From positions 132,878-196,877 of IMG/VR virus record IMGVR_UViG_3300046777_002658: a DNA stretch of 64,000 nucleotides; one strand, given 5' to 3'. The DNA is from a virus. The translations under genes and the position numbers were made by a program. The notes beneath the pieces were generated by a model. That model saw only the letters and a program-made list of their open reading frames with translations, did no database searches and was not told the DNA's origin. Positions 2,312-11,548 of the stretch are shown here, one piece after another (position 1 is the stretch's first letter; the number at the start of each line of letters is the position of its first letter).

Positions 2312-2490
2312 GCTTAGATAAAAAAGACCAGGAGCGAGCATACCTAACTCGCATAACCAAGAACTTAACTAATGCTGAAAAAAAGCTTGAAAGAGCTGAA
2401 GCTAATCTACTGCAAGCTAAAGCTTTAAAAGAAAAAGCTACTAGAGAGTTAGCTGACTATAACAATTTAGCAACTAACCAAGATGGTTGA
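2308..2490 (+). CDS. Small coiled-coil protein
   Basis: 60-aa heptad-rich ORF overlapping both neighbours. Confidence 0.6.
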   Translation: MSLDKKDQERAYLTRITKNLTNAEKKLERAEANLLQAKALKEKATRELADYNNLATNQDG

Positions 2491-4891
2491 CATAATAACC
2501 AGAACCAAAAAGCTGTTTGAGTACATAACATCGTTGGATGCTTACTCAGCAGCCTGCAGTTTTCTTTTTGGTTCTCAAAGATTAGCTGTGGATACAGAAA
2601 CCTGTGTAAGAGAAGAATGGCTGACTAAAAAGGGCTCGGCTCTAGATCCGCACACAGGCAGAATATCTTTGATTATTATACAGAAGCCAAAAAGTCTACC
2701 CTACGTCTTTGACTTGTTTCACTTAGAGGCTGCTGGCTATAACCCTCAGATGCTCATAGATGTTCTGGAATCAACTGTAGAGTATCAGCTTGGAGTTAAT
2801 TACAAGTTTGATATGCAGTTTATGAAAGGAACTCTAAACTATATGCCAGAGAGGGTCAAAGATGTTCTGATAATGGGTAAACTGATTAGTAATGCAACTG
2901 GCTCTAAGGTTGGTAAAGGTCATGGTCACAGCTATGCTGACTTAACTAGAGAGTACCTCAACGTTCACATCACAGGTAAAAAAGACCTTAGAACCTCATC
3001 TTGGGGGTTAGGTCTTTCTGCTAGATCCTTGGATAGTGAGTGGTGGTATGAGAAGATTCTTTATGCTGCTACTGACGTGAAGTACCTCTTTCAACTTCAC
3101 GACATTATGGAGAAGGTAATATGTGACCCTTTGCCTAACTCTCCCTTACTGGGTTGGAATGGTGACTCTGGCTCTTATGGTTTGGGAATGGCTAGAGTCC
3201 TGAAAAGAGAATCTCAGTTCATTCCTATAATCGCTGAGATGGAATATGGGGGTATGCCAGTCTCCCTAGAGACAATGACTCTGTACCAAGAAGGCGTGAC
3301 AGAGGCTCTAGAAGACTGTGGAGTGTACTTATCCAAAGAATTAGAGCTGGACACCCCAATCAGAAACTGGGAGGGAAGGCTTGTGCCTACTACCAAAGCC
3401 CTTAAGATGTTGAGGTCTTCAACTGGCTTACTGGATATACTTCAGAAGGCTATTAACATGAAGAAGATTAGTGATGTGCAGGGCGTCACTCTTAAAAGGA
3501 TGCTGGACATAATTGACCTTCTTCACTCCTTTAATAAGGAAGATACAGGGGGTGATGGAGAGTCAGGAGTCGAGGACATCTTTATCAACAGTGAAGAAGA
3601 GAACCTGTTTGGTGAGCTGACCATTATGGAAGAGTCAGAACTACTAGCTATTAGTCCAGTAGTTAAGTCTATCCTAGAGTTTAAGAAGCTAACCAAACAA
3701 GAGGGGATGGACTTGAGAAAGTTTGTTAATCCTGTCACAGGAAACATACATCCTAAGTATGACCAATTAGGAGCAGCTACAAGCCGATCTTGTATAGCTG
3801 CTGGAATGAAAGTACAAGTACCAGGAGGTCAAAAGAACATAGAAGATATCCGAGTAGGAGACTATGTTTACTGCTACACAGAAGGGGGAAAACCCACTTT
3901 GAGAAAGGTTCTAAGAACTTGGTGTCATGGTGAGCAAGAAGTTGTTGCTGTTAAGTGGCAGAGTACGTCTAACAAGAGTGTAGTCGGTAAAGTATTATGC
4001 ACTCCAAACCATTTGTTCAAAACCAAACAAGAGGGGTGGGTGAAAGCAAAAGACCTTAAACGTTACCAAAAGATTTTTCATCTTCAAAGAGAAAGCTTAA
4101 CGCCTTCAGCTAAGAGAAGTAGTAGACCCAGACTTTATGGGACAAACTGCTTTATGGAATATGAGCAAGTAGTAATAAAGAGAGAGTATTTTAGTGCTCC
4201 TAATAACTGGCACATTCACCACAAAGATGAAAACCCTTGGAACAATAACTTATGCAACTTGGAGGTAATGACAGGTACAGACCATTTAAGACAACATAAG
4301 ATAGAAAGAGCAGAAAAAGGTTTAACCAAGTTTGAACACCTGTGCCTACCAGAAAATAGACCAAAGCTAAAACATGAAGCTGAACACCCTAGCTGGATTG
4401 AGAAAAGTAAGTTTCAACTACTGAAGATGTTAGCACAAGCTAAAGGGCACCCAGCCCAGGTAGACATGGACTTTGAGACCTTTAAGAGAAAGTGTGCTTT
4501 ATACTCTATAAACATCAAAGAAGTTACTTCTAGATATGGCAAAAATGGAGTATATCTGAACAGAGCCAACGTTAGAAGAGCTTTAGACTCAAGCAAAAAC
4601 ACTGAGATTGCTTCTAGAAAACTAGGAATTGGCACAAGACGCTTAATAGAAGTTTGTAGAAAGTTAGGAGTTAGCTACTCTAATCATTTTGTTACTTCTG
4701 TACGCCCAGCCGGTAAAGCTATTGTGTATGACTTAGAGGTAGAGGAGTTTAACAACTTTATTTGTGAGGAGCTATGTGTTCATAACTCTTCTTCTAACCC
4801 TAACAGTCAGCAGATAGGCAATAGAAGCCATGTTACTCTCACCTTTTCAAAACCTTGGTTTGCTCCCATTGGGATTGACCTTAACCTATAA
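2483..4891 (+). CDS. polA: Family A DNA polymerase, N-terminal part (3'-5' exonuclease + thumb/palm start), contains intein 1
   Basis: AVDTET (ExoI), NYKFD (ExoII), YAATD (ExoIII), IHPKYDQLGAATSRS|SSSNPNSQQI (TGRLSSxxPNLQ motif). Stops at 4889-4891 before motif A. Confidence 0.9.
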   Translation: MVDIITRTKKLFEYITSLDAYSAACSFLFGSQRLAVDTETCVREEWLTKKGSALDPHTGRISLIIIQKPKSLPYVFDLFHLEAAGYNPQMLIDVLESTVEYQLGVNYKFDMQFMKGTLNYMPERVKDVLIMGKLISNATGSKVGKGHGHSYADLTREYLNVHITGKKDLRTSSWGLGLSARSLDSEWWYEKILYAATDVKYLFQLHDIMEKVICDPLPNSPLLGWNGDSGSYGLGMARVLKRESQFIPIIAEMEYGGMPVSLETMTLYQEGVTEALEDCGVYLSKELELDTPIRNWEGRLVPTTKALKMLRSSTGLLDILQKAINMKKISDVQGVTLKRMLDIIDLLHSFNKEDTGGDGESGVEDIFINSEEENLFGELTIMEESELLAISPVVKSILEFKKLTKQEGMDLRKFVNPVTGNIHPKYDQLGAATSRSCIAAGMKVQVPGGQKNIEDIRVGDYVYCYTEGGKPTLRKVLRTWCHGEQEVVAVKWQSTSNKSVVGKVLCTPNHLFKTKQEGWVKAKDLKRYQKIFHLQRESLTPSAKRSSRPRLYGTNCFMEYEQVVIKREYFSAPNNWHIHHKDENPWNNNLCNLEVMTGTDHLRQHKIERAEKGLTKFEHLCLPENRPKLKHEAEHPSWIEKSKFQLLKMLAQAKGHPAQVDMDFETFKRKCALYSINIKEVTSRYGKNGVYLNRANVRRALDSSKNTEIASRKLGIGTRRLIEVCRKLGVSYSNHFVTSVRPAGKAIVYDLEVEEFNNFICEELCVHNSSSNPNSQQIGNRSHVTLTFSKPWFAPIGIDLNL
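3791..4786 (+). mobile_element. Intein 1 (332 aa) with HNH endonuclease
   Basis: Starts CIAAGMKV, ends VYDLEVEEFNNFICEELCVHN followed by Ser; internal HIHHKDENPWNNNLCNLEV..DHLRQH. Confidence 0.93.
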
Positions 4892-5111
4892 AGAGTTAAG
4901 CGTGCTCTCATGTTTTAGAGAAGCAGACCACATTTGTTATCCAGATACTAACCTAACCCGAAAGGAGGTGATGCTTGCGTTGAGCACCTTAAAAGCAAAA
5001 CAGTTGATAGTCCGCAGGCAATACTATCAACTGACTAAACGAGGAAAAGAAATAAAATGTCTTCTATTTGCCAAACCAGAAAACTTAGCTTTCCAGGAAA
5101 CCCCAGAGTAG
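4830..5111 (+). CDS. Small ORF spanning the polymerase split, possible winged-helix protein
   Basis: 93 codons open in a different frame across the whole gap; LTRKEVMLALSTLKAKQLIVRRQYYQLTKRG resembles a wHTH pattern. Confidence 0.45.
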   Translation: MLLSPFQNLGLLPLGLTLTYKELSVLSCFREADHICYPDTNLTRKEVMLALSTLKAKQLIVRRQYYQLTKRGKEIKCLLFAKPENLAFQETPE

Positions 5112-5161
5112 GATTTGAAGCCAAGCCGGGTAGAGTTCATATAAGCTGTGATTACGCGGGT
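5057..5161 (+). CDS. polA: DNA polymerase C-terminal part, exon 1 (not in ORF track)
   Basis: ATG at 5057 gives MSSICQTRKLSFPGNPRVGFEAKPGRVHISCDYAG, the R..F.A..G....DY lead-in to motif A; ends in U at a group I 5' splice site. Confidence 0.85.
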
Positions 5162-10721: not shown

Positions 10722-10822
10722 TTGACCTACTACCTACTACCTACTTACTGTTTAAGACGTGCCCTGAACGTGCAAGGTAACTTGCAGAAGCGGAGATAAA
10801 AAGCTCCGCGATAACAAAATTG

Positions 10823-10912
10823 GAATGTTCGCAAATGATGAAAGAAGCAATGATTCGCGTAAGGAGGGCTATTAAAGGTACAGGAATAGAAATTTTAAAT
10901 TCAGTGCACGAT
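10823..10912 (+). CDS. polA: DNA polymerase exon 4 (90 nt; not in track)
   Basis: ECSQMMKEAMIRVRRAIKGTGIEILNSVHD, ending at motif C (VHD|E). Confidence 0.93.
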
Positions 10913-11296
10913 TGATTAGTTGGTCGTGGGTAAAGAGCCTTAATTGTCTGGAACAACTTTAGAGCATCTAGCACCACAACGTAGTTGGAAACAACAAGCG
11001 TGAAGGTTTAAAAAGATAGATGATTTAGTCAATCAGCAGCCGAGGTGCTAAACTATAAATATGGATGCTTGGCCGAGCGGTTTAGGCAACGACCTCATAA
11101 GTCGTGGGGAGACCCAAGAAAAGTTCAACTCTTTTAGCATCCACTTATAGCACGTACCGGGTTCAACGATCAGTCTCAAGACGTAGGGTGTAAGGACACT
11201 CGAAACAGGCTCCCTCATAATTGAGGATGATATGATCTGACCGTCTAGTGAAAGCTAGAGAGAGTAGTCGGAACCGGGCTACTCGTAACACAAGTG
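10913..11296 (+). ncRNA. Group I intron 4 in motif C, containing a tRNA
   Basis: P1 CACGAU / GUCGUG wobble at U10912; P/Q-like AAUUGUCUGGAAC and AAUCAGCAGCCGAG; P7 GAUCA 11168-11172 / UGAUC 11233-11237; terminal G 11296; splice gives VHD|ELNC. Confidence 0.92.
11063..11143 (+). tRNA. tRNA with CAU anticodon (Met or Ile2) and long variable arm, nested in intron 4
   Basis: Acceptor GGATGCT/AGCATCC; D arm GCC-GAGCGGTTTA-GGC; anticodon arm ACGAC-CTCATAA-GTCGT; 13-nt variable arm; T arm AAAAG-TTCAACT-CTTTT; discriminator A; no encoded CCA. Confidence 0.87.
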
Positions 11297-11548
11297 GAAC
11301 TCAATTGCAGCGCACCTGGCAGAGCTTGGATAGATGAATCTAAAACTCTATTTGATTCAGAAGGGCGGGTGATAGATAAAGACGGCAAGCCAGCCTTCCC
11401 TAAATTCAAATGGGATGCAGAAGCTGAAGAGGCTGCAAAGCTAATTCACAAAATAATGGTGGATACAGAGACAGAGTTCTTTGCTGCCTATGGTAGTCCC
11501 TTGACCGGACGAGCAGAGTACAGCATTGGACCATTCTGGGTTCACTAA
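11297..11548 (+). CDS. polA: DNA polymerase exon 5 (C-terminus)
   Basis: ELNCSAPG...AAKLIHKIMVD...AEYSIGPFWVH matches the family A G..W..H terminus. Spliced C-part is 2271 nt, 756 aa with intein and 321 aa without. Confidence 0.92.
   Translation, partial: ELNCSAPGRAWIDESKTLFDSEGRVIDKDGKPAFPKFKWDAEAEEAAKLIHKIMVDTETEFFAAYGSPLTGRAEYSIGPFWVH

Follow-up and report, generated by a model that had tools for sequence, protein, structure and literature searches.

A two-gene family A DNA polymerase of a freshwater cyanophage, interrupted by two inteins and four predicted group I introns that carry a tRNA and small open reading frames

How might a phage obtain a working DNA polymerase from a locus in which the coding sequence breaks off inside one conserved motif after another? 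The question is raised by about 9 kb, positions 2483 to 11548, of a 64,000-nucleotide (nt) stretch of viral DNA, referred to here as the window, which is the last 64 kb of the 196,877-bp IMG/VR record IMGVR_UViG_3300046777_002658 (completeness estimate 94%) and comes from a phage of ~197 kb. The initial annotation had described this region as one DNA polymerase gene carrying two inteins, four group I introns and a coding gap. The inteins and introns stood up to our analysis; the single gene with a coding gap did not, since the gap is the boundary between two genes. We conclude, with a probability of roughly 0.8, that the region encodes a replicative family A DNA polymerase divided between two genes, which we call PolA-N and PolA-C, that these genes are interrupted by two inteins and four paralogous group I introns, and that the enzyme would mature through the RNA and protein splicing steps proposed below.

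The evidence that carries this reading appears when the interruptions are taken out. PolA-C, which like all features described here lies on the + strand, would consist of five exons: exon 1 (5057-5161; 35 codons, from the start codon to DYAG, the first half of motif A), exon 2 (5799-7552; the second half of motif A, then motif B and on to IRWV, with intein 2 in frame inside it), exon 3 (9328-9397; 70 nt, comprising the third base of a Val codon and then DEENAKGAGESSIRTAVNFAIQG), exon 4 (10823-10912; 90 nt, ECSQMMK...NSVHD, ending in the first half of motif C) and exon 5 (11297-11548; opening with the second half of motif C at ELNCSAPG... and closing with the C-terminal PFWVH and a stop codon). 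Exons 1, 3 and 4 had been put forward as coding segments missing from the track of open reading frames (ORFs), and they do join the others in frame: concatenated by script, the five exons give an open frame of 756 codons, or 321 amino acids (aa) without intein 2. The 321-aa product aligns with the uninterrupted 305-aa PolA-C of a relative, locus L012, which itself carries PF00476, in a single BLASTP segment (residues 15-321 against 6-305, 41.7% identity, E = 4e-71), and it also aligns with gp178 of phage Ma-LMM01 and with the fused homologues P0030 and P0051. In the PolA-C alignments, the four intron junctions and the intein 2 site are all free of gaps. The conserved motifs return in frame (DYAG|QEL, RKSAK|SLNFG, IRWV|DEENAKG, AIQG|ECSQ and VHD|ELN), and only after removal of the introns and intein 2 are motifs A (DYSQxEL), B (RxxxKxxNFGxxY) and C (VHDE) in order and in a common frame; the unspliced fragments score 16.4 and 13.3 bits, under the Pfam cut-off. 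All of the intein and intron coordinates and motifs first proposed are borne out, the restored motifs match PF00476-bearing homologues column for column, and the insertions lie in motifs A, B and C and at other conserved polymerase sites.

PolA-N (2483-4891) supplies the other part of the enzyme. It encodes a precursor of 802 aa and a mature protein of 470 aa, comprising the 3'-5' exonuclease and the N-terminal part of the polymerase through SSSNPNSQQIG, and it matches DNA_pol_A_exo1 (PF01612; E = 1.6e-14, 54.6 bits against a cut-off of 23.6) as well as Pfam DNA_pol_A (positions 72-120). Together the mature chains come to 470 + 321 = 791 aa, in line with the roughly 790 aa expected from the initial annotation. 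No second DNA_pol_A match was found elsewhere in the 94%-complete genome.

The phage is a freshwater cyanophage and a distant relative of the Ma-LMM01 group: the first 431 aa of the ORF at 2483 are 26% identical to the Microcystis phage Ma-LMM01 group, and a megablast search of the 9-kb region against the phage collection gave no matches. Over the same 431 aa, L004, one close IMG/VR relative, is 74% identical, and the P0001 lineage (loci L006-L011), drawn from several metagenome assemblies, is 94% identical. Our main comparison used three alleles, namely the window, L004 (extended 3' with L005) and L008, and ratios of nonsynonymous to synonymous substitution rates (dN/dS) were computed between the window and L008 unless L004 is named. 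The ratio is 0.03 for PolA-N, 0.19-0.28 for the polymerase parts of exon 2 and 0.17 for exon 5, and it is 0.17-0.39 and 0.10-0.24 for the ORFs carried inside introns 2 and 3, respectively; by this measure, exons and intron cargo are under purifying selection. Exon 3 is also present in both L004 and L008. The stretch occurs in freshwater and plankton metagenomes from about 11 studies, and the mosaic is real rather than an assembly artefact, because single contigs from independent metagenome studies span the whole of it.

What kind of element interrupts PolA-C? The proposal that all four are group I introns was checked by an Rfam covariance search, and Intron_gpI (RF00028, gathering score 50) matches each of them: intron 1 with 81.8 bits, the two halves of intron 2 with 37 and 31 bits, intron 3 with 25.5 bits and intron 4 with 20.9 bits (local-search E values of 3e-7 to 0.004 for introns 2-4). 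Within the 197-kb genome, such matches are confined to the PolA-C gene. All four 5' exons end in U and all four introns end in G (5798, 9327, 10822 and 11296). P1 pairs GGGU with GCCC in introns 1 and 2, GGU with GCC in intron 3 and CACGAU with GUCGUG in intron 4, and extra helices lie between P7 and P3', as in subgroup IA. The introns also resemble one another: identity is 86% between introns 1 and 2 over P6-P7, 86% between introns 2 and 3 at their 3' ends, and 83% between introns 1 and 4 over P9. By this similarity they are paralogues; each of the four interrupts a conserved motif directly after a U, and the covariation of their predicted helices indicates selection for splicing. What was observed is the anatomy, together with the homology, the helix covariation and alleles that have or lack each element; from these we infer that the four introns self-splice.

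Intron 1 (5162-5798, 637 nt; Rfam match at 5526-5763) has the highest Rfam score of the four. Its P1 pairing, GGGU/GCCC in the window, becomes AGGU/GCCU in L004, a compensating pair of changes, and P4 and P9 covary too. An ORF of 122 aa (5178-5546) with a double helix-turn-helix (HTH) lies after the 5' splice site and before the internal guide sequence. This ORF matches the DNA-binding parts of phage homing endonucleases (phrog_1303 at 3.4e-16, and phrog_7168) and has no nuclease domain; it is probably the HTH remnant of an endonuclease. In L004, intron 1 contains an additional ORF of 370 aa.

Introns 2 and 3 are built on a larger scale. In intron 2 (7553-9327, 1775 nt), 1478 nt of cargo, comprising six ORFs of 76, 42, 69, 70, 46 and 166 aa, occupy the P8 loop and divide the core, and Rfam matches the 5' half of the intron (P1 to P3') and its 3' half (P8' to P9) separately. 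P8 itself is a perfect 21-bp inverted repeat (7736-7756 and 9235-9255) reaching across these 1478 nt. Identical 18-bp arms are found in L008; in L004 the arms are 22 nt long, different in sequence, 95% complementary and 3.5 kb apart. We consider this to be covariation of a predicted long-range helix, over distances of 1.5 and 3.5 kb. The L004 intron holds a LAGLIDADG-like ORF, recognised by eye, and 3.5 kb of other genes. Intron 3 (9398-10822, 1425 nt) has two ORFs in P8, of 206 aa and of 101 aa, the latter coiled-coil-like, and its P8 arms (9589-9600 and 10742-10753) form 12 perfect base pairs, with equivalents in L008 and L004. Rfam misplaces P7 of this intron, for which we read a CGGGCA/UGCCCU pairing by eye, and beyond the P8 arms intron 3 is too conserved among the three phages for covariation to be assessed. 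None of the eight ORFs carried by introns 2 and 3 was assigned to a family by Pfam or PHROGs. A perfect 13-bp hairpin (9187-9217) lies where the last ORF in intron 2 ends; it is kept in L008 (8117-8145) and has no U-tract after it on the + strand.

Arms of such length raise the possibility that introns 2 and 3 splice in trans, with a promoter inside the cargo giving rise to a separate 3' half and the P8 arms joining the two RNAs. P8 arms of 21 bp in one intron, and of 12 bp plus an extension in the other, that covary over 1.5-3.5 kb are what a bimolecular ribozyme would need. Nonetheless, a scan for sigma-70-type promoters returned no more sites than expected by chance and none at 9216-9255, the 21-mer on the 5' side of the 3' P8 arm occurs once in the window, and no terminator-like site on the + strand was found inside the cargo. 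All of the parts lie on one strand and in the correct order, so that splicing in cis is simpler, and we regard splicing in trans as improbable. We prefer cis-splicing, with the P8 helix closing the ribozyme core across its cargo.

Intron 4 (10913-11296, 384 nt), which sits in motif C at VHD|E, has the lowest Rfam score of the four (E = 0.004 within 481 nt) but shows compensatory changes: P3 is GAGCC/GGCUC in the window and ACGAU/AUCGU in L008, and P7 is GAUCA/UGAUC in the window and GACUA/UAGUC in L008, which in both cases is full covariation. At the tip of its P6 extension ARAGORN predicts a tRNA with a CAU anticodon (11063-11144, 82 nt). The prediction scores 50.8 bits with the Rfam tRNA model (gathering score 29), the cloverleaf has conserved D and T loops, and the minimum free energy fold is a cloverleaf atop a stem that extends P6. 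Its long variable arm gives it a class-II-like shape, unusual among Met and Ile tRNAs. L008 has no tRNA here, and a LAGLIDADG ORF of 185 aa occupies its site. The 19-nt D-arm sequence of the phage tRNA is found in at least 120 genomes, nearly all of them cyanobacteria, and 113 of the matches are CAU tRNAs. Two of about 108 such CAU tRNAs, in the cyanobacterial metagenome-assembled genomes (MAGs) L026 and L055, have a variable arm that is 8 nt longer and forms a hairpin (81 nt in all), and in the closest long-arm copy, from a Crinalium MAG, the variable-arm sequence is almost identical to that of the phage tRNA. The cyanobacterial CAU tRNA homologous to the phage copy is not initiator-like. The other tRNAs of the phage genome are Arg(UCU) and Pro(UGG), which read AGA and CCN, and phage genes use ATA at 20.5 and AGA at 27.2 per 1000 codons. 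The tRNA thus appears to have been captured from the host, and it is probably of the tRNA-Ile2 type, reading AUA, rather than a Met tRNA.

Does this tRNA decode? An element placed inside a ribozyme domain, P6, with that unusual variable arm and with no encoded CCA, could instead serve the intron as a structural module or as a handle for processing, or be a dead passenger; the L008 intron, if active, works without it. Set against this, the tRNA differs by a single base between the window and L004, in the variable-arm loop, while the flanking sequences are 77-90% identical; the cloverleaf scores well above threshold; the same long-arm variant is found in cyanobacterial genomes such as the Crinalium MAG; and codon usage fits a need for a reader of AUA. 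We therefore think it unlikely that the element has no part in decoding, and we favour a decoding tRNA, probably of the Ile2 type. Two further observations concern the same sequence. Short contigs from runs X3 and X5, at 6-10 times the depth of the phage, align with the tRNA over its D-arm and anticodon stem only (11069-11106) and then run on into a CCAGGG/CCCTGG acceptor stem. They represent the ordinary CAU tRNA of cyanobacteria, here from an abundant organism present in those samples and possibly the host. In intron 4, the guide sequence GTCGTG (10923-10928) recurs in the 3' strand of the tRNA anticodon stem (11101-11106), probably by chance.

Natural populations provide alleles that lack or gain individual introns. 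In a DNA contig from run X14, position 10912 is followed immediately by 11297, exactly as predicted for the exon junction, and 384 nt are missing. This is an allele without intron 4 and its tRNA, and it makes the phage population polymorphic for the tRNA. Conversely, a population in run X10 that is near-identical to the window has an extra intron exactly between 9397 and 9398, and the end sequences of this intron match those of an extra group I intron in L004 (L004:18354-19237; Rfam 63.7 bits), which lies at the 5' splice site of intron 3 and contains a 220-aa ORF that is LAGLIDADG-like by eye. In L004 and X10, the extra intron and intron 3 are thus tandem introns after the same exon U, an arrangement absent from the window.

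The inteins show the same pattern of presence and absence. Both are inserted in frame and have canonical Hint blocks. Intein 1 (3791-4786, 332 aa), of the HNH type, interrupts PolA-N at TSRS|SSSNPN. It matches Pfam Intein_splicing (4.3e-10) and HNH_3 (2.4e-6), starts with Cys1, has block B (TPNH) at position 71 and ends canonically in VHN before Ser+1. L004 lacks it and reads continuously through TSRASSSAPN, and L008 (P0001) has a shorter intein 1 without the HNH domain, which we estimate at ~150 aa from the 621-aa precursor. Intein 2 (6045-7349, 435 aa), of the LAGLIDADG type, interrupts motif B of PolA-C at RKSAK|SLNFG and matches Pfam LAGLIDADG_3 (2.3e-20) and Intein_splicing (1.7e-12), with Cys1 and block B (TAEH) at position 71. 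It is absent from both L004 and L008, in which KSAKSLNFG or its equivalent is continuous. Intein 2 ends in AQD|S, without the penultimate His and terminal Asn. A terminal Asp is known from rare active inteins, and by likeness to these the splicing of intein 2 is plausible; its competence is uncertain because of the non-canonical C-terminus.

With so many interruptions, an intein with a non-canonical C-terminus, and introns without endonucleases, one might ask whether the locus is a decaying, non-functional polymerase overrun by selfish elements, with the phage using another polymerase. This seems to us scarcely credible. The exons evolve at dN/dS of 0.03-0.28, all of the catalytic motifs are intact once the elements are removed, and the 94%-complete genome offers no other DNA_pol_A match to take over; moreover, a near-identical mosaic persists in several independent studies, and the helices covary, which argues for continued selection for splicing.

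There remains the gap between PolA-N and PolA-C. On comparison with relatives, the gap (4892-5056) is a gene boundary common to the clade and not an intron. A search with the N-terminal part found 196 homologues at E values up to 0.001, and among the best 70 of the 196 most are 440-500 aa long and stop 20-40 residues past PNxQQI; the short tail of these homologues, of the type xRxxVxVxxxxxxF, recurs in the few fused forms. In L012, an HU-like gene and two more genes lie between the polymerase halves. In six of seven further IMG/VR relatives, PolA-C begins ~250-1900 nt downstream of the PolA-N stop codon (in L135, of the end of the match), usually in another frame; in the seventh, PolA-C was not found within the 15 kb fetched. 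The polymerase of Ma-LMM01 is annotated as gp180/gp179/gp178. PolA-C has a start codon of its own, ATG at 5057, behind the purine-rich sequence GAGGAAAAG; L008 is identical here, and L004 has TTG one codon earlier. The N-terminus of PolA-C aligns with the starts of L012 PolA-C and Ma-LMM01 gp178. Across the clade, then, this family A polymerase is encoded by two genes and not as a single polypeptide, a split that alters subunit structure and leaves homology unaffected. Three of the six PolA-C genes found in the further relatives are uninterrupted and three (L135, L136 and L139) carry interruptions at the motif B and VHD|E sites or close to them, which suggests that these two sites have been occupied repeatedly or anciently across the clade; counting L012, four loci (L012, L138, L140 and L141) are uninterrupted at all four intron sites.

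We considered whether the stretch at ~4850-5090 might nevertheless be removed or read through to give a single chain, by way of a small intron, of translational bypassing, or of a +1 and then a -1 frameshift through a small ORF (4830-5111) that runs, in another frame, from within the end of PolA-N into the start of PolA-C. Several features of the window invite this idea: both halves share one frame, a CCC-A site lies at the frame overlap, and a 16-bp long-range stem (4817-4834 with 5054-5072) has a predicted energy of -16.5 kcal/mol. Fused homologues (P0030 and P0051) exist, and the authors who described the polymerase of phage Mic1 called its 298-bp spacer an intron, without RNA evidence (PMC7156551). 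Each route was rejected. An Rfam search of 4780-5180 gave noise only, with no match to group I introns or any other RNA family, which speaks against an intron. Bypassing is at odds with the lack of conservation of the stem, whose predicted energy is -6.7 kcal/mol in L008 and -6.0 in L004, and with an AGA "take-off" codon that is AAA in both of these relatives; nor is there a stop codon after AGA, and the PolA-N tail beyond it is kept clade-wide. As for frameshifting, we found no conserved slippery site, and no canonical slippery heptamer in the sequence read, for the return shift, and the halves in relatives lie in different frames, up to 1.9 kb apart, with other genes between them. A codon comparison with L004 shows the PolA-N frame kept to ~4875, another frame to ~5085 and then the polymerase frame again, so that the gap is filled by a selected ORF in a different frame. 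A single chain is thus very improbable, and two genes remain the preferred reading. A split intein at the break, as in a "fractured gene", was rejected as well: the PolA-N tail and PolA-C head extend only ~23 and ~16 residues beyond conserved sequence, which is too short, they are homologous to the linker of fused forms, and they contain no Hint blocks.

The small ORF at the break (4830-5111, 93 aa from an ATG) is under purifying selection at the protein level (dN/dS of 0.20 with L004 and 0.40 with L008). Its family matches are weak (wHTH-PRTase_assc at E = 0.012; Atlas winged-helix leads at ~0.8), and an AlphaFold model from three sequences reached a pLDDT of 72, with no clear winged HTH to be seen. 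The ATG is present only in the window; a TTG at 4860 is common to the window, L004 and L008. We suggest that the product may be a winged-helix DNA binder.

Several observations weigh against the reading of the region as a functional two-gene polymerase with four introns and two inteins. Three of the four introns fall under the Rfam gathering threshold, which we attribute to the large loop insertions of introns 2-4, because these depress the scores. A P8 helix that spans 1.5 kb of translated cargo may fold slowly, and RNase P and RNase Z, in processing the tRNA, would cleave the precursor inside intron 4. To these may be added the atypical end of intein 2 and the small ORF at the break, which has neither a conserved start codon nor a clear fold. 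Finally, among the listed runs that hold the stretch, none is an RNA run.

We propose the following path to the enzyme. The split into PolA-N (the exonuclease and the first part of the polymerase) and PolA-C (motifs A, B and C) would have been inherited from the ancestor of the clade, and mobile elements would have piled onto it: an HNH intein in PolA-N, and a LAGLIDADG intein and four introns in PolA-C. The PolA-C transcript would self-splice four times, both precursor proteins would excise their inteins, and the mature chains of 470 and 321 aa would associate non-covalently. The introns, for their part, would largely have lost their endonuclease genes and become carriers of other genes; RNase P and RNase Z would presumably free the tRNA, either from the precursor or once the intron has been excised. 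More tentatively, at what we would put as somewhat short of even odds, group I introns here may have turned from selfish carriers of endonucleases into cassettes for gene delivery, with a host-derived tRNA and eight small selected proteins expressed from ribozyme loops. If so, the supply of the tRNA and small proteins would be tied to polymerase expression and splicing, and the long covarying P8 helices would be an adaptation that closes the ribozyme over kilobases of translated cargo, or in trans.

The immediate surroundings of the locus are conserved. A RecA-like gene (window positions 1250-2311, 353 aa) and an ORF of 60 aa (2308-2490) lie directly 5' of PolA-N; RecA_N and RecA_C were found in the identical neighbour gene of L006-L011, and the order of RecA-like gene, 60-aa ORF and PolA-N is kept in close relatives. 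The G+C content of the phage is 40%.

How does this locus compare with known systems? The DNA polymerase genes of the Staphylococcus phages Twort and K contain group I introns. It is established that phage polymerase genes can contain introns, that replication genes can contain inteins and that genes can be split into pieces (PMC3428280, PMC3984707, PMC2677866), and the cyanophage Pf-WMP3 has a group I intron, with I-PfoP3I, in its DNA polymerase gene (PMC3428280). As in gene 31 of the SPO1 family and in Pf-WMP3, the introns described here are predicted to be self-splicing and lie in conserved motifs of the family A polymerase of a tailed phage. Unlike those genes and those of Twort and K, which have one to three introns, PolA-C has four within 321 codons, and its introns hold other ORFs and a tRNA in place of an intact homing endonuclease.

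For the cargo, the nearest parallels are organellar. In the mitochondrial ND5-717 group I intron of hexacorals and corallimorphs, the loop that holds the cargo is P8. Ordinary genes are carried in that peripheral loop (PMC6545197). In both cases the ribozyme core must form across kilobases; unlike the organellar intron, introns 2 and 3 carry small phage ORFs, and their P8 arms are long, perfect and covarying. To our knowledge, no other phage group I intron has ordinary-gene cargo of this kind. Fungal mitogenomes of the Ophiostomatales encode tRNAs in introns of protein-coding genes (PMC7902536). The tRNA in intron 4 differs from these in belonging to a phage, in its position at the tip of ribozyme helix P6, and in having a LAGLIDADG gene at the same site in a sister phage.

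Phage genes in pieces include nrdA of the Aeromonas phage Aeh1, split by mobE, and gene 39/60 of T4. "Fractured genes" with split inteins have also been described (PMC2677866). PolA-N and PolA-C are like Aeh1 nrdA and T4 39/60 in that an essential replication enzyme is encoded by a pair of neighbouring genes, with a small unrelated gene occupying the break between them, and they differ from Aeh1 nrdA and the fractured genes in that there is no split intein, the ORF at the break has no nuclease domain, and the split is ancient and clade-wide instead of recent. Closest of all are Ma-LMM01 gp180/gp179/gp178 and Mic1 ORF86/ORF85 (PMC7156551), in which the polymerase is likewise divided between PNxQQI and motif A by a short spacer. 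Ma-LMM01 has a small overlapping ORF at the split too; unlike those in the window, the Ma-LMM01 and Mic1 halves contain no inteins or introns.

Inteins with a C-terminal Asp or Gln occur in RIR1 of Carboxydothermus and of Chilo iridescent virus. Intein 2 resembles them in its terminal Asp before Ser+1 and differs in having a penultimate Gln instead of His and in its place within motif B, where failure to splice would be lethal for the enzyme. Stacking of both kinds of element is known from the ribonucleotide reductase gene of Trichodesmium, which has four inteins and three group II introns. The bnrdE/F genes of SPbeta have introns plus an intein (Lazarevic 1998, as cited in a passage of PMC6293099). 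In these genes, as here, introns and inteins are stacked in a gene related to replication; unlike Trichodesmium, our case involves group I introns, a phage and introns that bear cargo. Whether such a density is extreme is a matter of judgement: we know of no phage gene with more such elements, although no census was taken. New here are the combination and density of elements in a phage, the position of a tRNA on P6, cargo of several non-endonuclease genes that covarying long-range helices enclose, and the recognition of the gap as a clade-wide split.

If our reading is correct, four RNA splicing reactions, two protein splicing reactions and the assembly of two subunits would be needed for one essential enzyme, making this locus a test bed for stacked mobile elements, and the natural alleles with and without each intein, intron 4 and the extra intron are material for studies of homing and fitness. 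The nesting of a tRNA in a ribozyme helix would set its processing by RNase P and RNase Z in conflict with splicing. Cargo-carrying group I introns would be extended from organelles, namely coral and fungal mitochondria, to phages. Lastly, the annotation of split cyanophage polymerases, including those of Ma-LMM01, Mic1 and many IMG/VR genomes, would be corrected, such that the gap between the halves is read as a gene boundary and not as an intron.

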